IMG/VR virus record: IMGVR_UViG_3300025018_000093
Reading direction: 5' to 3' (one strand)
DNA from: a virus
Taxonomy: Duplodnaviria > Caudoviricetes
DNA: 64,000 nucleotides
The notes beneath the pieces were generated by a model. That model did not search any database. It was not told the origin of the DNA and saw only the letters and a list, made by a program, of their open reading frames with translations. Shown here in pieces: positions 5,052 to 63,835 of this stretch. Position numbers and translations under genes: made by a program. How positions within the stretch are numbered: the first letter of the stretch is position 1; every line of letters starts with the position of its first letter.

Positions 5052-7865
5052 ATGCAAACTTTACTTCGCTCAACCTTCAGAGCGGACCCACGAGATGATG
5101 CTAACTTGCTCCTGAGCAATGCTCTGGAGTTACGGCAAGCCAGGCTAGAGTTCCTCACCCCGGAGCACTCTGCTGTGTGGTCGTTCGTGGAGGCGTTTGT
5201 CTCCGACCACAACCATGTGCCCGATATCTCTTCCCTGCAACTCCACTTCACGCAAACGGAGCCGGACCCCGACGTTATCAATCAGCTCCAGCTACTTCGT
5301 AGTCTGCCTGCCATCACACGCGGGGACTTCAAGAAACGACTGACGATCAAGGTAGAGGAGCTTAAGACAAGAGAGGTAGAGGAGCTTCTCAGTTACGCCA
5401 ACATCATCAATCGCAAGGGGGTCGAGGAGAAGGAAGAGGGGCAACGGGGTCGCGGGAGAATCCTGAAGGGGTATCGAGATGCACTGCAGCATATCACTCG
5501 GAAGTCCCTGGACATTATCCGGCCCACTGCGGGTGTTCGCAAGGAAGGTGAGGTCACGACTGACACGCACCTGTTCATTGAGGATTACGACCGCAGAAAG
5601 AACGATCCAACATATGGCAAGGGACAGCTCTGCGGGCTTCCGCAGATAGATGAAACTACGGGTGGAGCGAGAAAGGACCAGCTCTGGACACATGCTGCCT
5701 TCACGGGAGAGCTGAAGTGCTTGACCTCAGAGACCCTTATTCAGGATGCGGAGACAGGTACTTTTTCTACTATTGAGGAACTATACAGGGGAGGACTTCG
5801 TCCCTTGGTACAATGCCTTGATGAAGTAAAGTGGGAAACAACGTATGCTCGTGTGGGGCATGTCGAGCAGAATGCCAGGGTACCAATTTTCAAGATTACG
5901 ACTAACGCAGGTCGGGTGATTAGGGCATCGGGTAACCATCCTTTCCTGACCGTAACGGGATGGAAAAATGCGGAGGACCTCAATACAGAGCAGGACTTCC
6001 TGGCTATCCCTGAGAAGTGGTCTACCCTCCCCTTAGAGAGTACCCTTCGGGATGAGGAAGTGAAACTTCTCGGCTATCTCCTCGGAGATGGATGCCTGAA
6101 GGGGTACATCGACTTTACCAACACCAACCCCAGCATCCAGGAGGACTTTGTCCAATGTTTGGAGGCTTTGGGATACGCAGAACGTACACAAGCAAATGTA
6201 AATCAGCCCACGTACCATTGTATTGCAGACCGTTCGTGCTACCGAGTCTCGCATAACCTTGGGGATCGCTTTCATCCTAACCGTGTTTCTCCGCTGAGAG
6301 TTCTTCTGGAGAATCTCGGCCTTTGGGGTCGGGGATCTTACGAGAAACACATTCCAAGGACTCTTTGGCAAACATCCGATGCACAGATTTGGATGCTTTT
6401 AGGGGCGCTTTGGGCGACGGATGGAAGCATTTCTACCCGGAGGTACTGCGGGAAGCGCAAGGTAAATCTTTACTATGCCTCCGTGAGTGAGAGCCTCGCT
6501 CGGGATGTGTATCACCTTCTGCACCGTGTAGGTGTACAAGCAACCGTTCGACGGCATGCCTTGCAGTACAAAAATAGTACCAGACATTGCTGGCAGGTCA
6601 AAGTCATGTCCTGTTCCTGGTGGAGGTTTCTAACCTACTGCCACCCGGCAGGTAAGGTCGATCAAATGGCTACTGTTTTGGAGGTACTCTCGAAAGAACA
6701 GAGAGACCCTCGTATGCCATCCTCTTTGCTGAAAGATGTGGATGATAGTGTTCGCTGGTGGACCAAAGCAGGGGGGTGGAGATACGCCCGCTGGGCAAAG
6801 AGACGCAAGACCCTGTTGCGAGGAACCCTACACGAGGTGGCTAAGAAACTTGGAAGTGCAGAGTTGCTTCGTAAATGTGAGGGAGATATTCTTTGGGAGA
6901 AGGTTGAATCTGTCGACCCCGATGGTGTCGAGATGACATATGATCTGAGTGTTCCTGCGGTTGGGAACTTTGTGGCAAATGGATTCCTCGTCCACAACAG
7001 TACGTTTGCTTTCAACTGGGTCTACAACCAGGCCATCTACTTTGGTGAGAGTTCCTGCTACTTCAGCCTGGAAATGCCCTATGAGCAGTGTCAGCGCATC
7101 ATCTACACGATGCATTCCATGCACGAGAAGTTTCGTGACGTGCGGATGGCATTGGGACTACAGAAGGATCCCGATAATGCTGTTCCTCTGACCTACCATT
7201 ACATCCGGGATGGGAAGTTGCCCCCGAATGAGGAGCGTTTCCTGAAGGAGTTCGTGCTGCCCGACCTGGAGGAGGGGGCCGCCAACGGAATCTATGGGAA
7301 GATGCACTTCCGAGGGTATGACCCTGACAGTGATTACTTCCGCATCTCCGATATGCGAGCGAAGGCAGAGACGCTGTACCGGGAGAGTTCTTTCTCTCTT
7401 CTGGTCGCAGACCACGTTCTCTTGATTGACGCCAAGAAAAACCATCGAAGCACGACGGAGTCTGCCAATGAGGTAGTGCGGGATCTGAAAAAGCTCTCCG
7501 AGGTCTTCAATGCTGGCGAGGGCATTGCTGTTCTGGCGTTGTTTCAAATCAGTCGTGAGGGAAAGAAGAGGGCGGACAAGGCTGAGGGACGGTACAGCCT
7601 ATACGATCTGTCCTACTCGAATGAGATTGAGCGCAGCAGCGATGTTATCACGGGCAGCTACCTGAACGATGAGCTTCGCAAACGATGCCGTGCCTTGTTC
7701 CAATTCTTGAAGTCCAGAGACGGTGGGATGTGTGACCCCTTCTACACTCGCGTCGACTGGCCCTCTCGCATGCTGTTCACCTGTCATGAACGGCCCGGGA
7801 CGGAAGCAGAGTCTGTGGTAGAGGAAGTAGAGGGTACTCTCTATGAGGAGCTATTTGACCCCTGA
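5052..7865 (+). CDS. dnaB: DnaB-like replicative helicase with one intein
   Basis: P-loop AAFTGELK|ST split by intein; YFSLEM, LVADH, LALFQISREG, SNEIERSSDV. Confidence 0.85.
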   Translation: MQTLLRSTFRADPRDDANLLLSNALELRQARLEFLTPEHSAVWSFVEAFVSDHNHVPDISSLQLHFTQTEPDPDVINQLQLLRSLPAITRGDFKKRLTIKVEELKTREVEELLSYANIINRKGVEEKEEGQRGRGRILKGYRDALQHITRKSLDIIRPTAGVRKEGEVTTDTHLFIEDYDRRKNDPTYGKGQLCGLPQIDETTGGARKDQLWTHAAFTGELKCLTSETLIQDAETGTFSTIEELYRGGLRPLVQCLDEVKWETTYARVGHVEQNARVPIFKITTNAGRVIRASGNHPFLTVTGWKNAEDLNTEQDFLAIPEKWSTLPLESTLRDEEVKLLGYLLGDGCLKGYIDFTNTNPSIQEDFVQCLEALGYAERTQANVNQPTYHCIADRSCYRVSHNLGDRFHPNRVSPLRVLLENLGLWGRGSYEKHIPRTLWQTSDAQIWMLLGALWATDGSISTRRYCGKRKVNLYYASVSESLARDVYHLLHRVGVQATVRRHALQYKNSTRHCWQVKVMSCSWWRFLTYCHPAGKVDQMATVLEVLSKEQRDPRMPSSLLKDVDDSVRWWTKAGGWRYARWAKRRKTLLRGTLHEVAKKLGSAELLRKCEGDILWEKVESVDPDGVEMTYDLSVPAVGNFVANGFLVHNSTFAFNWVYNQAIYFGESSCYFSLEMPYEQCQRIIYTMHSMHEKFRDVRMALGLQKDPDNAVPLTYHYIRDGKLPPNEERFLKEFVLPDLEEGAANGIYGKMHFRGYDPDSDYFRISDMRAKAETLYRESSFSLLVADHVLLIDAKKNHRSTTESANEVVRDLKKLSEVFNAGEGIAVLALFQISREGKKRADKAEGRYSLYDLSYSNEIERSSDVITGSYLNDELRKRCRALFQFLKSRDGGMCDPFYTRVDWPSRMLFTCHERPGTEAESVVEEVEGTLYEELFDP
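5718..6998 (+). mobile_element. Intein (427 aa) with LAGLIDADG endonuclease, in DnaB P-loop
   Basis: CLTSETLIQ start, SGNHPF block B, LGYLLGDG and LWATDGS, ends YDLSVPAVGNFVANGFLVHN followed by Ser+1. Confidence 0.95.
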
Positions 7866-22239: not shown

Positions 22240-25200
22240 GTGAGAAACAAAAACGCAGCTCGTAAGCAATCACCCTCCCCCACGGCAGCTTCGGAGCTGA
22301 AGCCCATCAAGCCAGAGCGGTTTGTTGATCTTTCGGTATTCTACCTGAGTCTCTCCTCATTTCTCTCCGCGCAGGGCAACAAGCATCCCCATAGCAGAAA
22401 GGGGATGGTCCTTCTTCGAAAAGCGCAATCCCAGATGGAGAGCGGACTGGAGTTGATCGTGCGTCCACTTGTGGATACGCAACGAGTCCCTCAGTTGAAG
22501 TCTCACTTTCAGAAGGCGATGGTGGGGGCCAGTGTGGAGTCCGCCCTCGACAAAGCGCAGTTTCTGTCCGCGTTTTACCGGAAGCTGAGCACTCGCATGG
22601 AGGTTGTCCAGGACGTCTTTTCGGGAAAGTCTCGGACCCCCATCATGCAACTGGTAGACGTGGTGCAGCAGGAAACTCCGGCTGCGATCCTGCACAATTT
22701 GTCCGCCATAGCCCCTGTTTCAGGCATCCAGACCTTCCACCAGTGGGTTGTGGAGGCGGCGAGTATCCTGGGTGCTAGCTTGACTCCGATGGAGTCTATC
22801 GTTGTAGACACAGCCTCGGCAGTTAGCCTTGCTCGACAGATTCGGGATGTGGATGCCAACCTGGCAACCACAAGTCCCGTGTCTGAGGAAGCTGCGAATC
22901 TGCAAGGGGAGAAGCAAAGACTCTCTCGGAAGTTGGAGCAAGTGGTCGAAAACTCGGACAACCCTAACGTGGTTCTCAGCGGAGCTGTCAACGAGATCAA
23001 CAAGAACAAGGAAACAGGGTACCTTACCGAGATTGGGAAGCGTTTGGGGCACACCCCGGATCAAGAAGCTGCAATGATGGTTAGTGGAAAGTCCATCATC
23101 GCTGCCGGAGCGGGCTCTGGTAAGTGCGTTACAGGAGAGACAATCGTTTCTACCCCCAATGGTCCAAAGCGTATCGACGAATGTGCAGCGGTTTCCACTA
23201 CACTTTCCGTGGACGTCTCTCATTTGAGTACGGGGTGGAAAGAGGCACAGTGGCTAGATATGGGGGTGAGCGAGACACTGGAAGTCCAAACCAGGTCAGG
23301 GATTCTTCTGCGTGGTACCCCGGAGCATCCACTTCTTGTTTGGGGTAGCGAAGGGAAAGCTATCTGGAAGACTTTGGCGAGTCTTGAACCCGAAGTAGAT
23401 CATGTGCTTCTTTTGCCAGGTTTTGCGCGAGAGACAGGTACAACGGCCGTAGACCATGAGGAGGCATACTTGTATGGCCTTCTTATGGGAGATGGATGGG
23501 TCGACGTCAAACAAGGTCGTGTATCTTGGTCGCGTGGCGGAGAGTACTTGCCTCCGCATTACTACCGCCTGATGGCTGACATCTTTGAGGTCACTCCCAA
23601 GGCACATCCCAAGCGGGATACCCAAAGTGTGACGCATGAGGTGTGGTCACGGAAACTCGTAACGTTGCTTCAGGAAAAAGGTCTTGCTTTCGCATCTGCT
23701 AGGGACAAGAGCATACCTGCGTATCTAGTCTCGGCAACGGACGCGGAACGTATTCGGTTCCTGCAGGGACTTTTCGATACAGATGGCACGGCTACAGGTG
23801 ACCGCGAATTTGAGTGGCTTTCTGCCTCTGAGACGTTAGCTCGACAAGTACACCAGATGCTTTTAGGTCTTGGTGTAGTGGGTCTCTTGCGACCGAAACA
23901 TGTGAAGGAGTACCCCGACCATACGTACTGGAGAGTTTTTATCTCCGGTGAGCACCTTAGAACTTTCCAGGAAGTTGTGGGTTTCCGCTACGAGTTCAAG
24001 AAGAGTGCCGACTTGCAGGACCTTTGCCAAAAGGATTGCAACCCCAATATCGGAACGTATCCCCATGTTGGAAACCTGCTGAAGGAAGTGCGTGAGACCT
24101 GGAAAAGCCAACAACGCTGGGACGGTAGAAAGCAGTCACTCCTTATGGATGAGCGTTGGGTACAAGTTAAGCATTACCTACTAGGTAGTAGGGAACCTTC
24201 TAGGGAGAAACTCCAATCGCTCATACAGGGGTGTGAGAGTGAAGCCACTACTACTTTAGGTAGCTTGCTTCAGTTCTATCCAGATGCCGTTGTTGCAGTG
24301 AAGCCCTTTGGTAAGCAAGCCGTCTACGACTTCACAGTTCCTGAAACGCATAGCTTTATCGCCAATGGAATCGTATCGCACAACACCCGAGTCTTGGCTT
24401 CAAAGGTTGCCTGGCACATCGAACAGGGGGTTGCTCCCAGTCAAATCATAGCGACCTCCTTCGCACAGAAGTCGGCGGCAGAGCTGTTTGAACGCATTGA
24501 GAAGTACGGGTCACCCATAACGGATGACGTGGCGAAAGAGGGGTACGGGACCACGCACAGCGTTGCTCGTAGCCTCATTAAGCGCTTCGCGCCCAACATC
24601 ACCATGCGACCCTTGATTGAGAAGGGTCTTCAATCAAAGCTCATTCGCCTGGCGATGGAGCAGGTGCAGATGACGCCCCTGCGAGCTGGGGTCGGAGATC
24701 CGGACCCCGAGGAATCCTTCTTTCCTCCTGTTGGGACTGCCGGTCCTGGAGGTCCTGCGGGTGACATTGCGGCGGAGGACCCCGAAACACCCGACATGGG
24801 GACGGAATACGAGAGAGCCGTGCTTCAGGCTCTGCAGTACCATCAGCGGCTGGATGCTCGCATTGGACCCCAGGGTTGGTTGAACTGGACGCTTGGTTTC
24901 CTGAATGACATGCTCGACCAGGATCCCGCCAAGTTCACTCCCAGTATGAAAGCTTCTCTGAATAAGGCCCTGGGCCGTGTCAAATCCGTTTCCTACCGCA
25001 TTGCAGGTGCATCACAGGGTGCCGACAAGAGCTACTTCTACAAGAACCCCGCTAATCAGTGGTTCAACATCGGGCGAAAGCCTTTGATGGACGACATGAG
25101 TAGGCCTATTGGGGCTCGTCGTTTCGGAACAGCGATCAGTGGGTACAAAGCTAATCTTGAGACCCCTGGGAAGCTCTGGGCGGAGACGGGTGGCAACCAC

Positions 25201-28071
25201 AAAGGTGAAGCAGCTCTCTTCACTGCTGTGTATGGAGCCTACGAGTGGTTGAAGAGCAACGATACGCAATTTGGCGGAGGGTATGATCACGATGACACGT
25301 TGATCAATGCCGCCAAGGTTTTGGTCGGAAATCCGAAGGCTTTGGAGTACGCCCTGGCGCGTTGGAAAGTCGTGCTTGTTGACGAGGCGCAGGACTTGAA
25401 CCAGTGCCAGCACGTCATTTTCGGCCTGATCTCCGGGTACTTTGATCCGAATACCCAGAAGCCCTACGAAGATGGAAGATTGCACGCGGACACGTACACC
25501 TTCATTGGGGATGACAAACAATGCGTGGCTGATGACACTCCCGTGCTAACACCCTCTGGGCCAATCCTTGCAAAAAATCTTCGTCCTGGCGACAAGGTTC
25601 TGTCCTATCGGAATGGGGAAGTAGTTCCGCAGACAGTTCGTCACAACATGAGAAGTGATTGGGACCATGGACTTCGGGTGATAACAGAGTCCGGTAAAGA
25701 ACTTCTGATGTCTCCAAATCACAAGCTGTGGGCTACAAACCCGCAGTTGGAGGACGAACAACACATCGTGTATCTGATGTGGCGAGAGGACTTTGGATTT
25801 CGAGTGGGTGTCACCAATAATGGACGGGATGACTCGCATCTCTATCTCTACGGGCAACGCCCTGTCGCTGAAAAAGCAGATAAGTTCTGGGTTCTCGATA
25901 TCACAGAGAACCGAGATTCTGCGCTTCTCCTCGAAGACTGTTATTCTTTGGAGCATCAGATACCCAAAGCAGTCTACCACACGAATCATCGGAATGGTTT
26001 CAAGGGTTCCTACGAGAAGCACATTCAGAAGATTTTTGCTCGCTTCGGCCACAACGGAGTCTGCCTCCTTGAGAAGAAAGAACTATCTTTCGATCTCCCA
26101 CATTGGGTTGCTCGAACCTTCGTGAAAGCGAAAAAGTACACAATCCAAGTGGTCGCACATGGTCCAAAGGGAACGCAAGTCAACCTGGAATGTGGACCGG
26201 AAGTAGACTTGGGAGCTATCTCCTTCAAGAAGCGCCCACAGGATAGAAAACTCATTCGCAAGTGGTTCGGCAACTATCGTGAGGCTCTGCAGTTTGTAGA
26301 CGTGTTGCAGAAACAGACAGGTGCGCTGGTAGCAAAACACTTGTCTTCACCTGCGGGGTCCCTTCGGATGTTGACAGCCTCTGCGTTGTATCCGGGGATG
26401 GAGCTTGTCCTCTATGACGGGGAAGACGTGGAGATGGATGCGATTATCTCCGTGGATCCTGTGGATCCTGCGGAGGGGGTTGTGTTTCTGGACTTGGATG
26501 TAGAGGATGCCTCCAACTTCTTTGCCTGTAACCTGTTGGTTTCCAATAGTATTTACGAATTTCGTGGTGCAACCCCGGAGAAGTTCATCGAAATGTCTGA
26601 CCTGGTGCCAGGAGGTGCTGGGTTCACGACGAAAGTTCTGGAGGTCAACTTCCGTTCCGGCGCCGCGATTGTGGACGCAGCAAACAGGTTGATTGCTCAC
26701 AACACGAAGCAGATCCCGATGGTTTGCCGTGCTGCAGAGCGGAATGGCATGGGGTCTATCAATTACGTAGACGTGGCCACGCATGCCAGCGGGGCTGCTT
26801 TTGCTGCTGAGCGCATTCAGGAGCTGACCAGTGGGGACAACCCCCAATTTGGAGTGCAGGACTTTGGTGTGGCTGTGCGAACGAATGCCGAGGCATTTGC
26901 GTTTGGCGTTGAGATGTTGAAAAGGGGGATGCCCTTCCGTTCTCGAATGAGTTTCTTCGGGGATGACACGACCAAAGCACTGGTGGCGTGGATGCGCATT
27001 GCGGATGCCGCAAGCCTCCGGGAAATCAACCAGGGGGTTCTGGAGGCACATCGCACCCCTCGATTTGGTTTGGACGATGTCTTCGGTTCGCAGCTGCAAA
27101 AGCAAGCTCGGGGGAAAAACTACTATGAGTACCTAGTCAGTGGTGGATGGCGAAACATCTACACAGGAGAGCAGGGCTGGCGAAATGCCAAGCTCGTAAA
27201 ACCCTATGTGGACGCACTCCAGCGGGTACAGGCCCTGAAGTCTACTGCTTCACCCCAGGAGATCCTAGACTTCATCCTGAATATGGAAGGGGCACCGTTA
27301 CCTGGTGGAAAGCCACCGCAATCTACGATTACGTCCTTGATCGAGAAGGTAAAGGGATCTCCTGATGCTATGGACCTCCTCGTGCAGGAGGTTGATGGCG
27401 GGGAAGTCACTGAGGATTCCATGCGTGGGTTGGCCCTCGCCCCCGTGGCTCCGCTAATGGGGTTGCTGGAAGGTTACGAGGACATCGGTCCTGCGATGAA
27501 GTTCATCCAGAAGCTTCAGCATGCTAATGAAAAGAAGCACAAGCAAGACAGCCCAAATGCATCGGACTACGCGGAACCTGCAGTCGTCATCGATACCGTC
27601 CACGGTTGGAAGGGGTTGGAGACGAAGAACCTGTTTATTCCCATGGCAAAGGATGTCTTCCCGCATGTACGCTCGAAGGAGTCCGAGAGGGATATGGCCT
27701 CGGAACGTCGTCTTGCTTACGTGGCCATCACACGCGGGAAGGAATCTGTCACGATCATCGCCCCTGCGGAGAGTCACACTGGAAAGCCAGCCGGTCCGAG
27801 TGAGTTTGTGTTCGAGGCTTGCATTCCCTCGGTGACCAGTCTTGCTGAGGAGAATCCAGCGTTGGCGCAGGAAATGGGAAAAGAGCCCGCAGTGGAAGTT
27901 CCTGCAGAGGAAGCACCTGTAAAGAAGCCTCGTCGCCGCACCCGAAAGCAAAGCTCCCGCACCTACACGGAGGCTGAGTTTGAGGCCTATCTTCGAGGGG
28001 ACACCGCATTCTTTGAGTCGATGGACCTGGAGAAGCAGTGGAACAAGCCGTATGTGGAGGAAGAGGAATGA
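22240..28071 (+). CDS. UvrD/REP-family SF1 helicase with N-terminal extension and two inteins
   Basis: AAGAGSGK|T, VDEAQD, GDDKQ|SIYEFRGA, NFRS, TVHGWKGLE, ERRLAYVAITR. Confidence 0.93.
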   Translation: MRNKNAARKQSPSPTAASELKPIKPERFVDLSVFYLSLSSFLSAQGNKHPHSRKGMVLLRKAQSQMESGLELIVRPLVDTQRVPQLKSHFQKAMVGASVESALDKAQFLSAFYRKLSTRMEVVQDVFSGKSRTPIMQLVDVVQQETPAAILHNLSAIAPVSGIQTFHQWVVEAASILGASLTPMESIVVDTASAVSLARQIRDVDANLATTSPVSEEAANLQGEKQRLSRKLEQVVENSDNPNVVLSGAVNEINKNKETGYLTEIGKRLGHTPDQEAAMMVSGKSIIAAGAGSGKCVTGETIVSTPNGPKRIDECAAVSTTLSVDVSHLSTGWKEAQWLDMGVSETLEVQTRSGILLRGTPEHPLLVWGSEGKAIWKTLASLEPEVDHVLLLPGFARETGTTAVDHEEAYLYGLLMGDGWVDVKQGRVSWSRGGEYLPPHYYRLMADIFEVTPKAHPKRDTQSVTHEVWSRKLVTLLQEKGLAFASARDKSIPAYLVSATDAERIRFLQGLFDTDGTATGDREFEWLSASETLARQVHQMLLGLGVVGLLRPKHVKEYPDHTYWRVFISGEHLRTFQEVVGFRYEFKKSADLQDLCQKDCNPNIGTYPHVGNLLKEVRETWKSQQRWDGRKQSLLMDERWVQVKHYLLGSREPSREKLQSLIQGCESEATTTLGSLLQFYPDAVVAVKPFGKQAVYDFTVPETHSFIANGIVSHNTRVLASKVAWHIEQGVAPSQIIATSFAQKSAAELFERIEKYGSPITDDVAKEGYGTTHSVARSLIKRFAPNITMRPLIEKGLQSKLIRLAMEQVQMTPLRAGVGDPDPEESFFPPVGTAGPGGPAGDIAAEDPETPDMGTEYERAVLQALQYHQRLDARIGPQGWLNWTLGFLNDMLDQDPAKFTPSMKASLNKALGRVKSVSYRIAGASQGADKSYFYKNPANQWFNIGRKPLMDDMSRPIGARRFGTAISGYKANLETPGKLWAETGGNHKGEAALFTAVYGAYEWLKSNDTQFGGGYDHDDTLINAAKVLVGNPKALEYALARWKVVLVDEAQDLNQCQHVIFGLISGYFDPNTQKPYEDGRLHADTYTFIGDDKQCVADDTPVLTPSGPILAKNLRPGDKVLSYRNGEVVPQTVRHNMRSDWDHGLRVITESGKELLMSPNHKLWATNPQLEDEQHIVYLMWREDFGFRVGVTNNGRDDSHLYLYGQRPVAEKADKFWVLDITENRDSALLLEDCYSLEHQIPKAVYHTNHRNGFKGSYEKHIQKIFARFGHNGVCLLEKKELSFDLPHWVARTFVKAKKYTIQVVAHGPKGTQVNLECGPEVDLGAISFKKRPQDRKLIRKWFGNYREALQFVDVLQKQTGALVAKHLSSPAGSLRMLTASALYPGMELVLYDGEDVEMDAIISVDPVDPAEGVVFLDLDVEDASNFFACNLLVSNSIYEFRGATPEKFIEMSDLVPGGAGFTTKVLEVNFRSGAAIVDAANRLIAHNTKQIPMVCRAAERNGMGSINYVDVATHASGAAFAAERIQELTSGDNPQFGVQDFGVAVRTNAEAFAFGVEMLKRGMPFRSRMSFFGDDTTKALVAWMRIADAASLREINQGVLEAHRTPRFGLDDVFGSQLQKQARGKNYYEYLVSGGWRNIYTGEQGWRNAKLVKPYVDALQRVQALKSTASPQEILDFILNMEGAPLPGGKPPQSTITSLIEKVKGSPDAMDLLVQEVDGGEVTEDSMRGLALAPVAPLMGLLEGYEDIGPAMKFIQKLQHANEKKHKQDSPNASDYAEPAVVIDTVHGWKGLETKNLFIPMAKDVFPHVRSKESERDMASERRLAYVAITRGKESVTIIAPAESHTGKPAGPSEFVFEACIPSVTSLAEENPALAQEMGKEPAVEVPAEEAPVKKPRRRTRKQSSRTYTEAEFEAYLRGDTAFFESMDLEKQWNKPYVEEEE
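23125..24384 (+). mobile_element. Intein 1 of UvrD (420 aa, LAGLIDADG) in Walker A
   Basis: CVTGETIV start, TPEHP block B, YGLLMGDG and GLFDTDG, ends VYDFTVPETHSFIANGIVSHN followed by Thr+1. Confidence 0.95.
25522..26547 (+). mobile_element. Intein 2 of UvrD (342 aa) in motif III, with a non-LAGLIDADG insert
   Basis: CVADDTPV start, SPNHKL block B, ends FLDLDVEDASNFFACNLLVSN followed by Ser+1; insert IVYLMWREDFGFRVGVT. Confidence 0.9.
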
Positions 28072-49982: not shown

Positions 49983-50372
49983 ATGAACGATAACACAAAT
50001 GAACTACAAGTGGACTTGCAGACACCCGAGACGATGCTGGACTTGATACAGCGTCGCTCCGCAGCTATTGCGTCTTTTCGCAAACAAGGGAAGAAGGGCA
50101 TCATGGGTTGGCTGCAAAACAGCCCCTGTGGGGGGATCGTAAGTGAGGGGATCATGGAGTGCTTTCGAGCTTCTATCGAGAGCGCAGACGGAACCTGGAA
50201 GGTTCACTACAACCGCCCGCACACCAATGCACCTGTGGCTCCTCCACCCAAGGGTTCCATGGATTTCATCCCCGTGTCCGCTGCTTGCTTGACAGGTGTG
50301 CTGATTCTCCATGTCGATGGACAGGTGTACCCTGGACCCAATTTCCCAAGACTGCCCGAAGCCAGAAGATAA
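49983..50372 (+). CDS. Hypothetical protein
   Basis: SD GAGGAG before ATG 49983. Confidence 0.6.
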   Translation: MNDNTNELQVDLQTPETMLDLIQRRSAAIASFRKQGKKGIMGWLQNSPCGGIVSEGIMECFRASIESADGTWKVHYNRPHTNAPVAPPPKGSMDFIPVSAACLTGVLILHVDGQVYPGPNFPRLPEARR

Positions 50373-50431
50373 CCTTCCTGGCCCTCTCCGCACCAGGCTC
50401 CCCTCACTACACTTCAGAGGTCTCGCGCACG

Positions 50432-53400
50432 ATGATGGATAGCAAGCAGCTGACGATAAATCCCTATCGGTTCTATGACCTGGTACAAGTCCAGCAGAGA
50501 ATGACCCCTGGGATGTCTGAGTTCCTGGATGACTTCGGTGGCAAACTGGCGGAGAAGCGGGTACAACTCGAAGCCGACTACGACGATATCAACGAGTTGT
50601 ATGATCGTTTCGTTCAGGAATCCGAGAAGGGTGTGCGGGAGCGCCTTCAAAGCGATTGGGCCACCTCGGAGGAGCACGGCAAAGCTCAGGACCCTTACCG
50701 AAACACCCTGGCGGGCGAGAGCTTCCTTCATGTCATCCTTACGCTGTCCAAGTTATCTCGGGACATGCATCTGGAACTGCAAACCCTTGTGGAGCTTCTT
50801 CGCCCAACACCCCTTATTCTGCAAGAGGGGGCATCCTTGCGGGACCCTTGGTCCTTCAAGGCGAGTGACTTGCAGCAGCTATCCTATGAGATACAGATCA
50901 ATTCGGAGTCCGTCACGCAATTCACTTCAGGTGTCTTGGGAGTGCGCGATGGACGCAAGAGCATCCTCAAGTATTTGGACCAGACGATTCGAGTTCTGGA
51001 CAATTTCTACACCGCACTGGTGCGGAGACATATGACAGAAGGGGTGCCAATTCTCGTGGACCCCCTCCTGACCGACGTTGCCCTCTGCATCTACGAAAAT
51101 GTGGACAGTCATGGGGAAATCGAGAACGGGTCCGATCCCAACAAGGTGTCCGCGTACTCGGTCCGAAAAGCTAAGCTCCTGATTGAGGCGACCAGTGTGG
51201 GGAGAATTGGTACGTTCCTCCGAGAGCCGGCTTCTTTTCTCGACTATGTGCGCAACACCTTTCGGTCGTTGTGGGCAGACATGGGGGTCCTGGAGGAGCA
51301 CTTCGACAAAACCATCGAGGATGTACATCGCATCGTGAATCCCTATGCGATCTATGCCCCGCTTCTCGATTCCAATCTGGCGTCTGGCTTGCGTGTCCTG
51401 GACACTATGGACCCTCGCAGTGTCACCTATCGAGATCCTGGAAAGTTGTTGTCCCCCGAGGAGAGAAAGGCGCACAACTTTTGGGTGGACACTCTCCAGG
51501 GTATCGTAGAGAAACTCTCCAATGAGACACCCTCCTCGGAACTGGTGCAGTACATCCTTCAACGCAAGTTCGAATTGCGAGGGTGGCAGCAGGACGAGAA
51601 CAGTTTCTACGTGTGCCGCATCGGTTCCGGCAATCAATTTCGGGGAGTGGCCCCAGGGGCGCTGGAGGTGGTCCCCGGAGCCCGTCCCACGGTCAAGCTC
51701 GACGAGATCATTGGGGCCGGATTCGACGACGTGCGCGCCTTCGTGGAGCAAGTGGAGTCTGCCGCCAAGTGGCATGACCTCTTTGTAGCCACCTCCCCGA
51801 GTCGCACCGCCGACAAGTCGAATGTGCTACTCATAGGTCCTCAAGGATGCGGGAAATGTGTCACCGGAGATACTCGGGTCTTTACTTCCCGTGGGCTTTG
51901 TCGCATTAAGGACTTACATCCTGGGGAGATCGACTCCGATGGGTATGCTCCCCTGGAAATGGCAGTTCGTTCTTTTACCCACAGAGGGGTCTCCTCACAT
52001 TTCTACGACTCCGGTGTCCAGCCCACTTTCAAGGTAGAGACGAAGCATGGCTACCAAGTTGAGGGGACGGACAAGCATCAAGTCATTGTGGCCACGGCAG
52101 GGGGTCCTGCCTGGAAACGCTTGGATGCTATCTGCGAAGAGGACCTGGTGGGGATCATTCGCTACCCGGACATAGGGGTAGCGGATCCTCAGGAAGAGTG
52201 GTTCCCTATGGGGCCGGATGATGTGGACGAGGAGGACGCATATCTTCTAGGGTACTGGATCGGAGACGGTTCCTATTCTCAAAAAACCACCCCTCGGTTC
52301 TCTGTTGGGGCGCAGGACATGGACTACTTCAAAGAGTTTGTACTACCTGCGCTGGAAAAGAGGTGGGGTGTCCCACATGTCTATCAGGACAAGCGTGGGC
52401 TCTACGACGTCCAGGTCTTCCACATGCACTCCGGTGCAACAGCTCTAGTAGCAGAATGCGGATCTGGGGCTTCCCACAAAAGAGTCCCGGAAACGATCCT
52501 GCGTTCCAGTAAGAGAGCCTGGCGGGGGTTCTTGTCGGGACTGTTCGATGCGGATGGATCGGCATATCAAAGTCGTGTGGAATGGGCGTCCAACAGTGAG
52601 GACCTCATCCGCACTGTGCAAACGATGCTGACAGCTTTCGGGATTGTGTCCGCCATCACTTCCCGGACCCAGCCCGGTCCGGGGGCGAAAGAGTATGTTT
52701 CCTGGCGAATGTTTCTCTATGGGGAGAATGCTCGGAGATTCTTCCACCAAGTGGGATTCCGGCTGAAGCGGAAGATGGCCAAGCTAGCGCCACTTTTGTC
52801 TCAGAAACGCAACGATAACTGGGATTGCATCCCTGTCAGTCGAGAGCTTTGGAAAGCTCTCAAGAGACAAGCTGGTAAACTCCCCCGAGCAATACACAAA
52901 GCGCTGGACCCTTACATGAGAGGGCACTACCCATCACGGCACACCTTGAGTGCACTACTGGCGTTGGTGGGGGTCACCGAGGGGGTGGCTTTTGAGGCAA
53001 TCCAGCAGCTGGCAGACCCCAAGTGGTTCTGGGATAGAGTCCAGGCGGCAGGAGCTACGGGGGCGTCCAAGCAAGTCTATGACTTGGTTGTCCCTGAGGA
53101 GCAGAGCTTTGCAGCCAATGGTTTCATGAACCATAATACGGAGATTCTTCGCGGGGTTGGAGCAGACAAGAGGTCGATCAGCATCTTCGCGCAGGGGTCC
53201 GACTTCAACACTTGCTGGCTCGGGGAGGCAAGCAAGAATCCCAAGCGCCTGTTTCAGGCCGGCTTGCAGCTCCAGAAGAAGGCCAACAAGCATGTGCACT
53301 TTCTCATCGATGAGATTGACGCCATCTTGAACAATGACCGTCAGAACGCAGGGTACATCAACCTCACCCTGGAGTTCCAAATCCTGATGGACGGTGTGGT

Positions 53401-53950
53401 GCAGTACCCTCATCTCTCGGTGTGGGGAACGACCAACAGCCCCAACCGAATCCCGATGCCGATGATTCGTCGATTCTCGAAGGTGGCCATCGTAGGTGAG
53501 CTGGACCAAAGTGACCGTATCCGACTACTCAAGCACTTCACCAGCTTCCTCCCTTGCGCGGAAATCACAGATGAGTCCTGGAAACTTCTCGCAGACAAGC
53601 TGGAGGGAGCCACTGGGGATGTGATCCGAAAGGTCGTGGATACGGTGTGGCGGGAGACGATGACCCGATTCGTGATGCAGGACCCCGGGAATGCGGAAAC
53701 TCTGGTGCGGTGGCTCAACCGCAATGCGAAGTTTGACATTGGAAGTTTCGAGGGAAAAGAGCGGCGAGGGTTCCAAGAGATCCTGCGAAAGCATTTCGGA
53801 ATCACCGCAGAACAGTTGGACGTCTCCGTCGAGAAAGCCCTCGACAACGTGGCGATCCTACACGAGATTGAGACGGCGAAGATGGTTTACCGGGATGCTC
53901 AGCTCTTCATGGCTTCCGTGACGGAAGACCGTGGTGGGTGCCCCGTATGA
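50432..53950 (+). CDS. AAA+ ATPase with large N-terminal domain and one intein
   Basis: LLIGPQGCGK|T, FLIDEIDA (Walker B), TTNSP, MIRRF (Arg finger). Confidence 0.9.
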   Translation: MMDSKQLTINPYRFYDLVQVQQRMTPGMSEFLDDFGGKLAEKRVQLEADYDDINELYDRFVQESEKGVRERLQSDWATSEEHGKAQDPYRNTLAGESFLHVILTLSKLSRDMHLELQTLVELLRPTPLILQEGASLRDPWSFKASDLQQLSYEIQINSESVTQFTSGVLGVRDGRKSILKYLDQTIRVLDNFYTALVRRHMTEGVPILVDPLLTDVALCIYENVDSHGEIENGSDPNKVSAYSVRKAKLLIEATSVGRIGTFLREPASFLDYVRNTFRSLWADMGVLEEHFDKTIEDVHRIVNPYAIYAPLLDSNLASGLRVLDTMDPRSVTYRDPGKLLSPEERKAHNFWVDTLQGIVEKLSNETPSSELVQYILQRKFELRGWQQDENSFYVCRIGSGNQFRGVAPGALEVVPGARPTVKLDEIIGAGFDDVRAFVEQVESAAKWHDLFVATSPSRTADKSNVLLIGPQGCGKCVTGDTRVFTSRGLCRIKDLHPGEIDSDGYAPLEMAVRSFTHRGVSSHFYDSGVQPTFKVETKHGYQVEGTDKHQVIVATAGGPAWKRLDAICEEDLVGIIRYPDIGVADPQEEWFPMGPDDVDEEDAYLLGYWIGDGSYSQKTTPRFSVGAQDMDYFKEFVLPALEKRWGVPHVYQDKRGLYDVQVFHMHSGATALVAECGSGASHKRVPETILRSSKRAWRGFLSGLFDADGSAYQSRVEWASNSEDLIRTVQTMLTAFGIVSAITSRTQPGPGAKEYVSWRMFLYGENARRFFHQVGFRLKRKMAKLAPLLSQKRNDNWDCIPVSRELWKALKRQAGKLPRAIHKALDPYMRGHYPSRHTLSALLALVGVTEGVAFEAIQQLADPKWFWDRVQAAGATGASKQVYDLVVPEEQSFAANGFMNHNTEILRGVGADKRSISIFAQGSDFNTCWLGEASKNPKRLFQAGLQLQKKANKHVHFLIDEIDAILNNDRQNAGYINLTLEFQILMDGVVQYPHLSVWGTTNSPNRIPMPMIRRFSKVAIVGELDQSDRIRLLKHFTSFLPCAEITDESWKLLADKLEGATGDVIRKVVDTVWRETMTRFVMQDPGNAETLVRWLNRNAKFDIGSFEGKERRGFQEILRKHFGITAEQLDVSVEKALDNVAILHEIETAKMVYRDAQLFMASVTEDRGGCPV
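51857..53137 (+). mobile_element. Intein (427 aa, LAGLIDADG) in AAA+ Walker A
   Basis: CVTGDTRV start, LGYWIGDG and GLFDADG, ends VYDLVVPEEQSFAANGFMNHN followed by Thr+1. Confidence 0.95.
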
Positions 53951-55280: not shown

Positions 55281-55823
55281 CTAGAGCCACCCAATTTTTG
55301 CTAGTACAGGTTTGACGCCAAAGTGCAGACGATAGCTCTTTGTCTCTTTGCGCCGCACCCAGGCCCAGTCTACGTTCTCCCAGTTCAACCTTGGTCTCCA
55401 TTTTTCCGGGACGCTTTCATCGACCTGCGCGATGAGGGTTGTGTACTGGAATCCTCCATCCTTGAAGACGAACTTCCCCACGATGCGATACGGTGGGACA
55501 CTCCCAAGTTCTTCCAGGGCCTCTCGGTGAGCAGCAACCTTGGGGTCTTCCCCCTTTTCGACGGCGCCTCCCACTACTCCCCAGGTGTTGGGCTCGTTTA
55601 CATGTGGCGACCTGTGCATCAGCAGCACACGAGTGGGTGTGCGGAGGAGGAGCCCAGCCCCTTCCTGCCCCCAGTACACCCTCTCGTCGTCATCTTCGAA
55701 GTCATCTTCGTCGAGGTCACCCTCGTCGAAGTCCTCCTGAAGGTCTTCGGTTCCCAAGGGGAGCTTGTGCTGCATGGCGTATCTTCGCAAGATGCGAAGG
55801 GTCATTTGATGATTCATGGCCAT
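55281..55823 (-). CDS. NUDIX hydrolase
   Basis: Nudix box GGAVEKGEDPKVAAHREALEELG. Confidence 0.92.
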   Translation of the reverse strand: MAMNHQMTLRILRRYAMQHKLPLGTEDLQEDFDEGDLDEDDFEDDDERVYWGQEGAGLLLRTPTRVLLMHRSPHVNEPNTWGVVGGAVEKGEDPKVAAHREALEELGSVPPYRIVGKFVFKDGGFQYTTLIAQVDESVPEKWRPRLNWENVDWAWVRRKETKSYRLHFGVKPVLAKIGWL

Positions 55824-55839: not shown

Positions 55840-56676
55840 CTAGGAGCCTAGGATCAGGGGGAGTAGCCGCTTTCGAAGTTCCGGTCGTTGGTATGCCAGA
55901 CGAACCACGCGACCTTGGAGGGTGGAAGCTTTACGATAGGGAGGGTTCCAGTCGACGTCACCTTTCTGGAGTTTCTTGGCTGCGATGGGCACTTCCTCGG
56001 GATCAATTACCGGCATGTCTGCACGGTCAGGTGCCCAGGAGGGCACCTTCTTGGGAATCAGTCCCGCATTGTCAGCGATGCTGTTCACACCCTCGGCGAC
56101 GCTGCCGAAGGTGGCCTCCAGAACTTTCTGCACATCCTCGGAGGACCATGGGAAGGCTCCTCCAATTCCGTTCGCCACGAAATCTTGGAGCATGTCTCTC
56201 ACGTTGCTCGACGTGTACGTCGCAAGGCTCCCCTTTCCAGGGTTGCCATGGTTTTTCTTAAATGTGCCCTTGGTCAGGATGTTCAGGACGCGGACCAGAT
56301 CCTTCCCTGGTAGCGCAGCCTTGTACCCGGCGACTTTGGCGGAACTCCCGCCCGCGAGGATCGCAGCGGACCAGCGGTGGTGTCCGTCCATGATGTAGTT
56401 GTCCATTGACACGATGGCCCCAAGGTCACCGCCGATCTTTCCCGTGCGGAGCATGAACAGGGCCATCCCCAGCGACTTTCCTAGCACCATGGTCGTCTGG
56501 GACGGTTTCAAGGAAGCCGCTGCAGCGGTGAAGCTCTTGACAGCTACCTTGTCTTTCGTATCCCCACTTTCCACCATGACTTTGGCGATGTCTGGGGAAA
56601 CTTGGCCCAGCCTATCCGCTTCTTGAAACTGCTTCTCGTGCAAGGACCCGTCTGCTCGTTTACACGTCTTCTTCAT
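55840..56676 (-). CDS. ParB/sulfiredoxin-like domain protein
   Basis: LKPSQ...IVSMDNYIMDGHHRWSA; C-terminal RVVRLAYQRPELRKRLLPLIL. Confidence 0.65.
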   Translation of the reverse strand: MKKTCKRADGSLHEKQFQEADRLGQVSPDIAKVMVESGDTKDKVAVKSFTAAAASLKPSQTTMVLGKSLGMALFMLRTGKIGGDLGAIVSMDNYIMDGHHRWSAAILAGGSSAKVAGYKAALPGKDLVRVLNILTKGTFKKNHGNPGKGSLATYTSSNVRDMLQDFVANGIGGAFPWSSEDVQKVLEATFGSVAEGVNSIADNAGLIPKKVPSWAPDRADMPVIDPEEVPIAAKKLQKGDVDWNPPYRKASTLQGRVVRLAYQRPELRKRLLPLILGS

Positions 56677-57076: not shown

Positions 57077-59212
57077 CTACCACTGTTGAATGACTTGTTC
57101 TGTCAGCTCTCTGGAGGTCAGCTCCGGGGAGTTCAGAAGAAGCCTCCGCGCTAATGGTACAATTCGACCCCGTTCTTTAGCCTCCAGGCCCAGTCTCTCG
57201 ATGATTTGCATGTTATCCACCGGGGGCTTCTGGAGCTTCTCCAGATAGGCATTGGCTTCGTCCTCTGCCATGGGAGCAAGGAGGCTGCGAACCTGCTTTC
57301 TTTGCTGTGCCGTGAGAAAGGATAGTGGGGTTCGCACAGGCATACCCCGGTCTAGGATGTCCAAGAGAAGTGACTTGTATCGGGGACTCGACAATTCCCG
57401 CGAAAGATACGCGGAGAAGCCTGGGTTCTCCCCAATCATTTCGGAAATAACGTCCAAGATCCCTAGCTCGTCCATCAAGTCCAACATCTTCGAGGCATTC
57501 GATTGCATGAGGATGTTGTGCACCAGGATGCTCGCGATGGCCTCGTAAGGCATTCGCTTCATCTTGGGAGCGTGCTTCCGCAGCGCAGCCTCGGTCTTGG
57601 GTGTCATTTGGAACCCGTAGCGACCGATGAATTTGATGGCCCGCAGGATGCGACTGGGATCATCCGAGAAGGTTTGATTGGGATCGGAGGGGCATTGCAT
57701 ACGACGCTCTGTCAAGTCCCGGAGTCCGCAACCTGTCAAGTCGATAATCTCCGCCTTCTCTGGCCCGTCCACCAAGTCGAATAGCCGCCACATCAAGCTG
57801 TTCCACGTAAATTCTCTGCGACGCACATCATCTTCAATGGTTGCCTGGGAGACTTCCGTGGGTTTGTATCCCTTTCCACCTTCGCCTTTGCCGTAGCTTT
57901 CTGTCCGAGCGTTGGCCACCTCGATGACTTCACCTCGTAGGTTCTCCCCTTCTAGCTCCCAGTCCCCTTTCACGCTCAGGATGGCCACCCCATACTGATT
58001 GGTTGTCACAGTTGTGGGTGTGGGTATCTTGTGGGACACCAGCTTCGCAAAGTCTCCGGAGTCCATACCTGCTCGCACGCTGTCTATCACCACGTCAATG
58101 TCCTTGATTGGCTTGCGGAGAATGAAGTCTCGCACCGCTCCCCCGACTACATAGACATGCTTGGCGATCCTGGCCTCCCGTGCGATTGCGGAGAGAAACT
58201 TCATGAGAGCGATGGACCGCTTGTGTTCCTTGGATTCCAGGTACCGGGTAGCCACTCGCACAGAAGAGGGTCCGAGTTGAAAGTAGAACCGCTGCCCGTT
58301 TGAGATCCCAACGGTGCCGGACAGGACAGGACCATTGACTTTGCGAAAGCCCCGGGCTAGCAGTTTGTTTGCTTCTTTGGGGCTCGCTCCTTCCGTGGCT
58401 ACCGTGACGTGCGGAACGTCGTTGTCCACAGGAAGTCCTCCTGGGTCCACAGCGACGACTTGTAGGCTTTCATCTGAGGCGATCCCTGTGACCTTGACTT
58501 GGGCCTTGGCACCAATGGGAAGCGCTTCTAGTTCCTCCGGCGTGAGGCGGAACTTCATTGTCATGTGGTTAGCCCAGGCCGTGGGGAGAACACCTCCGAT
58601 ATCCTGCACCCACCACTGCAGCAATGTCTTAGGATTGTCGAGAACCAGACCTACGTACACTGCTTGCTTCACATCCGGGAGTTGCCCAAGGTCTTGCGGT
58701 CCACAGTTTACCTCTGCGGGTTTGGACCTCACAGGGTGCGCGCGAACCTCGTAGCCAGCTCGCTGAAGCATCTGGGCGTAGCTCTGTAGCAAGTCGCGTT
58801 GGTCATCCCACAATTCTACCTCAGACACGAACGGGAACTTGCTCAGAGTGTCACGAAGCACCTTTCGTTTGAAGGCTCCCGTGGATTCCAACCCCCCTCT
58901 AGGGTTCAAGTGGACCTCGTCGAAATCGAGATTGGCACCTCGCAGAATTTCGGGTATCCGCCATCGAAAGATTCTGTCGCTGCGCCCGGTGCAGAGAATG
59001 GCATAGGTGTTTGGGTCTGCGATGGCTCTTCGAGCTTCCTGAAGTACGGAATTGACCCACCACTCGGATCCCGGTCGAAGGGGAACGCAGGGTGGGCTCA
59101 AAGACAGATCATCCACATACCAACCGCGCTCATACCAGGGGGGAGGAGCGGGCGAGCGAAACAGAGTACCGTCGAAGTCGAACATTGCTAGCGTGGGCAT
59201 TACCACCTCCAT
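57077..59212 (-). CDS. Three-domain RNA end-repair protein: HAD phosphatase + 2H phosphoesterase + tRNA nucleotidyltransferase (CCA/poly(A) polymerase family)
   Basis: FDFDGTLF..LCTGR..LWDD (HAD); NHMT and PHVT (2H); VYVVGGAVRD...KDID, DDVRRREFT.N, FSDDPSRILRAIKF (class II NTase). Confidence 0.88.
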   Translation of the reverse strand: MEVVMPTLAMFDFDGTLFRSPAPPPWYERGWYVDDLSLSPPCVPLRPGSEWWVNSVLQEARRAIADPNTYAILCTGRSDRIFRWRIPEILRGANLDFDEVHLNPRGGLESTGAFKRKVLRDTLSKFPFVSEVELWDDQRDLLQSYAQMLQRAGYEVRAHPVRSKPAEVNCGPQDLGQLPDVKQAVYVGLVLDNPKTLLQWWVQDIGGVLPTAWANHMTMKFRLTPEELEALPIGAKAQVKVTGIASDESLQVVAVDPGGLPVDNDVPHVTVATEGASPKEANKLLARGFRKVNGPVLSGTVGISNGQRFYFQLGPSSVRVATRYLESKEHKRSIALMKFLSAIAREARIAKHVYVVGGAVRDFILRKPIKDIDVVIDSVRAGMDSGDFAKLVSHKIPTPTTVTTNQYGVAILSVKGDWELEGENLRGEVIEVANARTESYGKGEGGKGYKPTEVSQATIEDDVRRREFTWNSLMWRLFDLVDGPEKAEIIDLTGCGLRDLTERRMQCPSDPNQTFSDDPSRILRAIKFIGRYGFQMTPKTEAALRKHAPKMKRMPYEAIASILVHNILMQSNASKMLDLMDELGILDVISEMIGENPGFSAYLSRELSSPRYKSLLLDILDRGMPVRTPLSFLTAQQRKQVRSLLAPMAEDEANAYLEKLQKPPVDNMQIIERLGLEAKERGRIVPLARRLLLNSPELTSRELTEQVIQQW

Positions 59213-59274
59213 CCTGGGAGTGTAGTCATAGTCTCAATAGCGTTTTGATACGCAGGCATTGGTGGGAGGTGTGT

Positions 59275-59808
59275 ATGCCCACGATGTCTGAGTCTGCAAG
59301 GACGGCTATCGCCCGTTTGGCTCCTTCCATGCTGTTACAATACGCTCTGCGTCATGACTTTGTCACAGCTCCAGCTTTGGACTGGGGCTGTGGTCGTGGT
59401 GCTGACGTACAGTGCCTGCGGGAGAGGGGTATTGAGGTGCACGGGTATGATCCTCACTGGCAACCCAACCTCCCCCCACATCGAGATTTCGCTTTCGGAC
59501 AATGCATCTACGTGATGAATGTGCTTCGAGGCACAGAGGAACGTCTACAGAGCCTCCGACAGCTCAAGAGCTACTTGGCTCCTGGAGCGGTACTCTGGGT
59601 GGCTGCCCGGTCGCAGCAGTCCGTGCTGGCAGCGGCCACACGGGGCGCGTGGAGCCCACTGGGTGAGGGATTTATGACCAGCCGTAAGACGTACCAGGAG
59701 GGGTTCACGGACCAGTCCATGCAAGCTCTCCTCGTGTTGGCGGAGTTTTCTGACGTGCAGACAAGCAGCTATCGAGACACCGTGTTTGGGTTTGCTAGCA
59801 ATGGGTAA
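59275..59808 (+). CDS. Class I SAM-dependent methyltransferase
   Basis: ALDWGCGRGADV, GYDPHW, YVMNV..ERL; SD GGGAGG. Confidence 0.8.
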   Translation: MPTMSESARTAIARLAPSMLLQYALRHDFVTAPALDWGCGRGADVQCLRERGIEVHGYDPHWQPNLPPHRDFAFGQCIYVMNVLRGTEERLQSLRQLKSYLAPGAVLWVAARSQQSVLAAATRGAWSPLGEGFMTSRKTYQEGFTDQSMQALLVLAEFSDVQTSSYRDTVFGFASNG

Positions 59809-62239: not shown

Positions 62240-62312
62240 CCGCTCAAGCCCTGAGCGTCCCACCCTGAAGGAGGTGGGGGTGCGGAACGATTTTCAGGCT
62301 GTCAGGGCAGCC
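62240..62312 (+). ncRNA. Circularly permuted pistol-like ribozyme, copy 2
   Basis: CCGC-UCAA-G-CCCUGA-GCG, P3 UCCCACC/GGUGGGG, GU at 62280-62281, GCGG, P1 GGCUG/CAGCC with UCAGGG loop, then A tract. Confidence 0.82.
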
Positions 62313-62747: not shown

Positions 62748-62751
62748 CTAG

Positions 62752-62825
62752 CCGCTCAGGCCCTGAGCGCTCCACCCCTCCTGGGTGGGGGTCGGAACAA
62801 TCCGAGTACCTGTCAGGGCAGGTAC
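62752..62825 (+). ncRNA. Circularly permuted pistol-like ribozyme, copy 3 (one G missing in P2 3' strand)
   Basis: CCGC-UCAG-G-CCCUGA-GCG, 8-bp P3, GU at 62791-62792, CGG, P1 GUACCUG/CAGGUAC with UCAGGG loop. Confidence 0.7.
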
Positions 62826-63761: not shown

Positions 63762-63835
63762 CCGCTCAGGCCCTGAGCGTCCCTGGCCGAAAGGCCAGGG
63801 GGTGTGGAACGAAGTCGTGCTGTCAGGGCAGCACG
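63762..63835 (+). ncRNA. Circularly permuted pistol-like ribozyme, copy 4
   Basis: CCGC-UCAG-G-CCCUGA-GCG, 9-bp P3 with GAAA tetraloop, GU at 63802-63803, GUGG, P1 CGUGCUG/CAGCACG with UCAGGG loop, then AAAAUAA. Confidence 0.85.

Follow-up and report, generated by a model that had tools for sequence, protein, structure and literature searches.

What would a phage gain by joining two phosphoesterases to a nucleotidyltransferase in a single polypeptide? The question is raised by an open reading frame (ORF) on the minus strand (57077..59212, 711 codons plus stop) of the Caudoviricetes record IMGVR_UViG_3300025018_000093, of which a stretch of 64,000 nucleotides (referred to hereafter as the window) was analyzed. 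An initial annotation had placed one ORF at exactly these coordinates and recognized in it the motifs of a HAD phosphatase, a 2H phosphodiesterase and a CCA-adding nucleotidyltransferase, taken together to restore tRNAs with a clipped CCA end; the ORF is indeed intact and the three motif sets are all there. The reading to which we give slightly better than even credence is that of a phage heal-and-extend enzyme for RNA 3′ ends (probably the CCA ends of tRNAs), akin to the Cca protein of E. coli with its HD domain exchanged for a 2H plus HAD pair.

A public gene call covering this DNA begins only at V185, and its product of 527 amino acids (aa) lacks the HAD domain. The true start is probably the second ATG of the ORF (59200–59198, M5), which is preceded by a GGAGG (59210–59206) at 5 nt spacing (59198..59210, minus strand) and lies at the same place as the starts of orthologues, for a product of ~707 aa. 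Full-length orthologues of 698–728 aa align with 42–51% identity across 97–99% of their length and, judged from these sequences, the three-domain arrangement is far beyond chance. Phage entries in GenBank gave partial matches only, confined to the nucleotidyltransferase domain, and a full-text literature search, whose incomplete coverage makes it no proof of novelty, found no description of a HAD/2H/nucleotidyltransferase fusion. Structural comparisons used AlphaFold models of the two halves of the protein (residues 1–335 and 331–711, with predicted local distance difference test values of 93.6 and 93.4, respectively), the first aligned by VIA-align, with 50 matches listed, and the second by Foldseek.

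The N-terminal domain (approximately residues 5–180; 58673..59200, minus strand) is a HAD phosphatase of the SAK-1 (Swiss-Army-Knife) family, as initially proposed, and the Pfam profile, the conserved catalytic residues and the predicted fold agree on this identity. Residues 48–155 match HAD_SAK_1 (PF10307) above the gathering cut-off (E 9e-17, 61.9 bits against 25.6), and the HAD motifs are complete (D12-F-D14-G-T16, corresponding to DxDxT, with T75, K115 and D136-D137); D12, D14, T75, K115 and D137 are invariant across 33 relatives that share the HAD-2H pair. The fold of the model is Rossmann-like and resembles polynucleotide 3′-phosphatases, with residues 3–164 superimposing on the 3′-phosphatase of T4 Pnkp (5uj0_B; Z 14.9, root-mean-square deviation (rmsd) 2.8 over 135 aa) and residues 3–163 on Pnkp1 of the Pnkp1-Rnl-Hen1 repair complex (4xrp_A; Z 14.6, rmsd 2.6 over 135 aa).

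The central domain (approximately residues 181–315; 58268..58672, minus strand) was recognized from two HxT motifs, H216-M-T218 and H268-V-T270, both of which are invariant across the same 33 relatives. Its profile match to Pfam tRNA_lig_CPD (residues 235–290; E 1e-3, 19.1 bits) falls under the cut-off of 23, such that membership of the 2H superfamily stands and membership of that Pfam family does not. The weak profile call is rescued by the invariant HxT motifs in combination with the predicted fold, which matches mouse CNPase (residues 180–306; Z 12.0, rmsd 2.4 over 127 aa) and the CPD of a fungal Trl1 KIN-CPD structure (residues 179–306 against residues 640–832 of 6u05; Z 11.3, rmsd 2.8 over 126 aa); the 2H identity first assigned to this domain is thereby retained. 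The best structural matches of both modeled N-terminal domains are hence RNA-end-healing enzymes. Acb1, a 2H enzyme directed against the cyclic-oligonucleotide-based antiphage signaling system (CBASS), is not among the 50 matches listed, an absence that does not exclude kinship. CNPase and the Trl1 CPD open a 2′,3′-cyclic phosphate (>P) to leave a 2′-phosphate and, since these are the closest relatives of the 2H domain, the HAD step would by analogy have to act as a 2′-phosphatase and not just as a 3′-phosphatase; T4 Pnkp, reportedly in work of Das and Shuman from 2013, is able to remove 2′-phosphates.

The C-terminal half (residues 331–711; 57080..58222, minus strand) is a class II nucleotidyltransferase of the CCA-adding type, with head, neck, body and tail assigned from Pfam, PHROG and the model. 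The PolyA_pol head (PF01743) is matched by residues 353–505 (E 3e-17, 63.7 bits against 23), PolyA_pol_RNAbd by residues 533–589 (26.4 bits against a cut-off of 22), and the half as a whole by PHROG 2244, a tRNA nucleotidyltransferase (E 5e-34). The catalytic motifs are present as G357-GAVRD, D371-I-D373, R465-R-E467 and D517-DPSR521, and their GGAVR, KDxD, RRE and DDPxR elements are invariant in 26 nucleotidyltransferase cores. A Foldseek search with the model places full-length CCA-adding enzymes at the top (3h38, 6qy6 and 1miv, from Thermotoga, Planococcus and Geobacillus; E ~1e-12), with A-adding enzymes, CC-adding enzymes and E. coli poly(A) polymerase slightly behind; 407–451 columns align with 3h38, 6qy6, 1miv and the tRNA-bound 5hc9, in keeping with a complete head-neck-body-tail architecture. 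The residues that serve as template for CTP and ATP, motif D ([ED]DxxR), read DDPSR, with D, D, P and R invariant; this motif is common to poly(A) polymerases too and does not discriminate between the two activities.

The wider family of this domain supplies the functional context. Sequences sharing the nucleotidyltransferase core (~380 aa) form a close-knit family (mean column identity 58%) that is found at no fewer than 309 IMG/VR loci, many of them on contigs of 200–536 kb. Among 185,579 cellular genomes, one per species, the best matches are ordinary bacterial enzymes at ~26–34% identity; within the collections searched the clade is phage-specific, having been seen only in phages and metagenomes. 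Its members are either stand-alone (~400 aa) or fused. Among the best 119 homologues, 37 carry a SAK HAD domain, 42 a 2H domain (of CPD or LigT type) and 11 both, and a 2H domain is present at 31 of 80 IMG/VR loci. A survey of the distribution of the fusion, which the initial annotation had suggested, thus returns recurrent and permuted fusions within a phage nucleotidyltransferase clade: HAD, 2H and nucleotidyltransferase are arranged in six different ways, with 2H domains drawn from two unrelated families. Five of these orders come from the homologues (HAD-2H-nucleotidyltransferase, nucleotidyltransferase-2H-HAD, nucleotidyltransferase-HAD-2H with a LigT-type 2H, and HAD-nucleotidyltransferase-2H with either a LigT-type or a CPD-type 2H) and the sixth, 2H-nucleotidyltransferase-HAD, from IMG/VR. 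Further partners of the clade are PAP2 phosphatase, inorganic pyrophosphatase, superoxide dismutase (SOD), topoisomerase IB, ART and DUF5661. The HAD-2H pair also frequently stands by itself, in proteins of 310–345 aa with 1,125 representatives up to an E of 1e-3, and in some cases has a P-loop kinase attached.

Two further arrangements were seen among these proteins. In proteins of 1,000–1,800 aa (P0129, P0126, P0153, P0072 and P0015), the partners joined to HAD_SAK_1, 2H and nucleotidyltransferase modules are Fe/Mn superoxide dismutase, topoisomerase IB of eukaryotic type and P-loop kinase. Two tandem nucleotidyltransferase cores lie in one protein in P0085 and in the 948-aa ORFs of loci L069–L071, recalling the split pairs of CC-adding and A-adding enzymes of some bacteria.

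Repeated, independent joining of a nucleotidyltransferase that depends on a 3′-OH with enzymes that clear cyclic and monoester phosphates suggests functional coupling, in which an end is healed and then extended, and we consider this recurrence the strongest argument for a pathway. The pyrophosphatase partner fits the same scheme, since nucleotide addition is inhibited by the product that this enzyme removes. In such a scheme the 2H domain would open the 2′,3′-cyclic phosphate left by a metal-independent RNase to give a 2′-phosphate and a free 3′-OH (by analogy with CNPase and the Trl1 CPD), the Pnkp-like HAD domain would strip the leftover 2′- or 3′-phosphomonoester, and the class II nucleotidyltransferase would add nucleotides onto the clean 3′-OH. 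The likeliest substrate would be a tRNA with a clipped or blocked CCA end, and translation would be kept running while host defenses attack tRNA acceptor ends. We infer this order of steps, the RNA (and specifically tRNA) substrate, the specificity for CCA and the role in counter-defense from domain identities, conserved catalytic residues, predicted folds and a recurrent fusion that were observed directly. The biological premise has precedent: toxins that cut tRNA 3′-acceptor regions are known (PMC9071432), and MenT3, a tRNA-end toxin, is counteracted when a class II CCA enzyme is over-expressed (PMC11541572). The reading is further favored by the 49–70 tRNAs encoded in four of five huge-phage records with the clade (most of these genes being without an encoded CCA in two of three examined), by the missing poly(A) polymerase signature and by a phosphatase gene next to an orthologue, both described below. 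Nothing on tRNA-end cleavage was found in PMC13000451. As to the proposal that the domains form a single pathway, the recurrent fusion in six orders with two 2H families speaks for it, and the tRNA substrate that was part of the original proposal is not established.

Several observations weigh against the heal-and-extend reading. A CCA-adding enzyme restores positions 74–76 only, leaving deeper cuts in the acceptor stem beyond repair. Specificity for CCA is the part of the original assignment that is not established (class II membership itself stands on profiles, motifs and fold), in that the NCBIfam pcnB model TIGR01942 scores 91.3 bits (cut-off 305.65) and the actinobacterial CCA model TIGR02692 scores 91.0 (cut-off 438.8), effectively a tie; that the CCA equivalog NF009814 reaches 80.7 bits against a cut-off of 290; that motif B is RRE in 26 of 26 clade members and RRD in E. 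coli Cca and PcnB; and that motif E is divergent in the clade. No tRNA gene lies in the 64-kb window, and one is found within 10 kb at only 1 of 60 related loci; one of five huge-phage records that carry the clade is without tRNA genes, and another (G004, the record with L019) already encodes CCA in 63 of its 66. In polyproteins of 1,500–3,100 aa, members of the clade are joined to SOD, topoisomerase IB and ART as well, and fusion may in part reflect co-delivery as opposed to a shared pathway. Finally, HAD-2H is a separate gene of 326 aa in a close syntenic relative (L081), and four stand-alone HAD-2H genes have neither a nucleotidyltransferase nor an RNA ligase adjacent.

The last of these points bear on the alternative that survives best, which we nonetheless regard as unlikely: a bundle of independent counter-defense enzymes, fused so as to be co-expressed or co-packaged, as polyvalent proteins are, and perhaps separated later. 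The 2H and HAD domains would then destroy host nucleotide signals (2′-5′ or cyclic oligonucleotides, 2′,3′-cyclic nucleotide monophosphates, ADP-ribose derivatives) and the nucleotidyltransferase would act separately. Such an origin is suggested by the giant polyproteins, in which ART-PolyVal and DUF5661 accompany SOD and topoisomerase IB, by the solitary HAD-2H of the close relative, and by a conserved basic motif, RVATRY (residues 319–324; 58241..58258, minus strand), which the clade alignment places just ahead of the nucleotidyltransferase core and exactly between it and the 2H domain. Stand-alone clade members have a corresponding R-V-A-x-R-[FYW] at their N-terminus, and unrelated enzymes of the window carry R-[VI]-[AL]-x-R-[HYMFW] close to theirs, at 31563 and 29852 (both plus strand) and, in a NUDIX protein (RILRRY), at ~55780 (minus strand); an ART and another ORF are the remaining carriers. 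In some clade members (P0050, P0053 and P0061, for example) the motif is repeated two or three times ahead of the core. RVATRY may be address-like and, were it a processing site, the mature enzymes would separate; the description of the protein as one chain accordingly applies to the ORF, which is single, whereas the mature protein may be split at RVATRY, HAD-2H being separate in the close relative. The 2H domains of polyvalent proteins are moreover argued never to associate with RNA ligases, and to be possible RNases or degraders of signaling nucleotides (Iyer et al, 2017; PMC5512222). Set against this bundling are compact proteins of 560–730 aa that hold these activities alone; the domain order varies among them, the 2H domain comes from either of two families, and PAP2 can take the place of the phosphatase. 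Because they carry nothing else, they point to selective enrichment of end-processing phosphoesterases. The closest folds, too, are those of RNA-end healers and not of signal-degrading enzymes.

A still more doubtful alternative retains healing by the 2H and HAD domains but has the nucleotidyltransferase add oligo(A), poly(A) or other tails to non-tRNA 3′ ends (those of mRNAs or small RNAs), and its substrates may include >P ends made by host RNases or by permuted pistol ribozymes of the phage. The parity of the pcnB and CCA scores, the divergence of motifs B and E and the scarcity of tRNA genes in the window and near most related loci all favor it, as does the presence of candidate ribozymes 2.4–4.6 kb away. 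No Rfam family matches anywhere in the window at gathering thresholds; at relaxed thresholds there are three partial Pistol matches (22–25 bits against a cut-off of 34.5, covering model positions 22/24–68), each just past an ORF stop on the plus strand (62240–62285, 62749–62796 and 63762–63807). These are consistent with circularly permuted pistol ribozymes, the products of which would carry >P ends. Beyond proximity, nothing ties the ribozymes to the enzyme, and the suggestion in the initial annotation that it might heal ribozyme-made cyclic-phosphate ends finds no backing. Tailing is also disfavored by structure, given that tRNA enzymes adding CCA, A or CC come ahead of E. coli poly(A) polymerase in the Foldseek results and that the model has a full body and tail. 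A poly(A) polymerase signature, [LIV][LIV]G[RK][RK]F..., was reportedly defined by Martin and Keller in 2004; it is missing here (LVGRRFRLAHV in E. coli PcnB), the clade having TNQYGVAIL at that place. Membership of the PcnB family is ruled out by the missing signature together with the score under cut-off, which does not in itself exclude a tailing activity.

Least probable of all is housekeeping maturation, in which CCA would be added mainly to phage tRNA transcripts without an encoded CCA and the healing domains would be a minor accessory: 49–70 tRNA genes in four of the five huge-phage records carrying the clade, with CCA encoded in only 7 of 33 and 15 of 45 in two of them (G001 and G002), lend it some support, but the carrier with nearly all of its CCA ends encoded, the carrier with no tRNA genes and the lack of such genes in the window count against it, and the pervasive phosphoesterase fusions are left unexplained.

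The HAD-2H-nucleotidyltransferase gene is the first of a minus-strand run and is followed by a 278-aa protein whose DGHHRW motif is ParB/Srx-like (55840..56676, minus strand), which ends in RLAYQR and for which Pfam gave no match and PHROG 2859 only a partial one, and then by the NUDIX hydrolase that carries RILRRY near its N-terminus (55281..55823, minus strand); both are noted as context only. The run diverges from a methyltransferase-HNH-HU block that is syntenic in contig L081. The nearest gene of this block, a small Methyltransf_23-like gene (59266–59808, plus strand; L081:1514–2065 in the relative), adjoins the HAD-2H gene divergently in two related phages. A role for it as a Hen1-like RNA-end methylase was considered and is unsupported, with no match to a sequence in the PDB below E 0.7. 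In orthologue P0003, a gene with a weak Pfam match to PTP-SAK, a cysteine phosphatase, lies directly upstream (L082:2892–3527, plus strand); two metallophosphoesterase genes are also nearby, giving the appearance of a small cluster of end-processing phosphatases. Elsewhere the window encodes a family A DNA polymerase, two PARP-domain proteins, a SET protein and an HU protein, and is rich in inteins, each with a LAGLIDADG nuclease, which interrupt SNF2, DnaB, UvrD and AAA genes (1261–4035, 5052–7865, 22240–28071 and 50159–53950, all plus strand); UvrD has a weak second Hint-domain match (Hint_2, 20.7 bits, under the cut-off of 28.4). The DNA is present in aquifer metagenome sequencing runs, among which no RNA run is listed.

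What the protein represents is a new combination of domains for a known repair idea, and not a new principle. The RNA repair so far known from phages (T4 Pnkp/Rnl1 and relatives) reseals breaks in the anticodon loop by ligation; were our reading correct, healing followed by CCA addition would constitute a second, ligase-free route at the acceptor end of tRNA, which is the target of several toxins and defense RNases, and would offer a compact single-chain enzyme for a complete series of RNA-end chemistry (>P to 2′-phosphate to OH to added CCA). A tailing enzyme acting on ribozyme-cut messages would be a different link, also new. The wider result may matter more, namely a large nucleotidyltransferase clade, specific to phages, whose function is indicated by the domains fused to it; carriage of such kits may thus be common among huge phages. 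Extended to its limit, and here we are tentative, the clade would be the hub of a modular tRNA 3′-end repair kit (2H of CPD or LigT type, HAD or PAP2, and pyrophosphatase) with an address motif for delivery with the virion or early in infection, which would pre-empt abortive-infection systems that clip or block acceptor ends (HEPN, CdiA-like and MenT-like), a ligase-independent form of counter-defense so far undescribed.

Several known systems invite comparison. In jumbo phages, SAK HAD domains, 2H domains and CCA-adding enzymes have been named as parts of the RNA-repair complement, the SAK HAD being usually stand-alone and the three parts being handled separately (Iyer et al, 2021; PMC7824862). 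The HAD domain here is of the same Pfam family (HAD_SAK_1) as the SAK HADs described there, but the parts are united in one chain and permuted across a wider clade. Phage polyvalent proteins (PMC5512222) are defined by several conflict-related domains per polypeptide, a feature also found here, and the polyprotein relatives of 1,500–3,100 aa likewise combine a nucleotidyltransferase of this clade with a 2H partner and have an address-like motif separating the modules. Compared with these, the present protein is compact (~707 aa), adds a HAD domain and has a CPD-type in place of a LigT-type 2H; and whereas polyvalent proteins are typically linked to head and packaging genes, this gene lies among replication and ADP-ribose genes and not beside a portal gene.

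The individual healing domains have their counterparts in dedicated repair enzymes. The CPD of Trl1, the tRNA ligase of fungi and plants, and vertebrate CNPase share with our 2H domain its two HxT motifs and its fold, the Trl1 CPD being joined to ligase and kinase domains where the 2H domain here is joined to HAD and nucleotidyltransferase domains. For the healing part and the nucleotidyltransferase together, the comparison is with E. coli Cca, whose HD domain was reportedly found by Yakunin and colleagues (JBC, 2004) to be a 2′,3′-cyclic phosphodiesterase, 2′-nucleotidase and phosphatase. Cca likewise holds, in one chain, a class II nucleotidyltransferase and activities able to clear cyclic and monoester phosphates, and is annotated as a fused CCA nucleotidyltransferase/phosphohydrolase (NCBIfam and sequence annotation). 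Its healing part is a C-terminal HD domain, as opposed to the N-terminal 2H plus HAD pair seen here, in a protein with no Pfam match to the HD family and with 60.2 bits against a cut-off of 451 for NF008137. The nucleotidyltransferases are ~30% identical and the present clade is confined to phages; E. coli Cca is the closest analogue and not a fellow family member.

T4 Pnkp, working with Rnl1, and the bacterial Pnkp1-Rnl-Hen1 complex share with our protein the HAD fold and DxDxT chemistry of their 3′-phosphatase domains and are, like the role predicted here, phage and bacterial answers to RNase damage. Unlike them, the present protein has no kinase domain and no RNA ligase, and none was seen adjacent to its gene. 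T4 Pnkp/Rnl1 repair ends in ligation; here it would end in the addition of nucleotides, befitting damage at the 3′ terminus of tRNA and not breaks in the anticodon loop.

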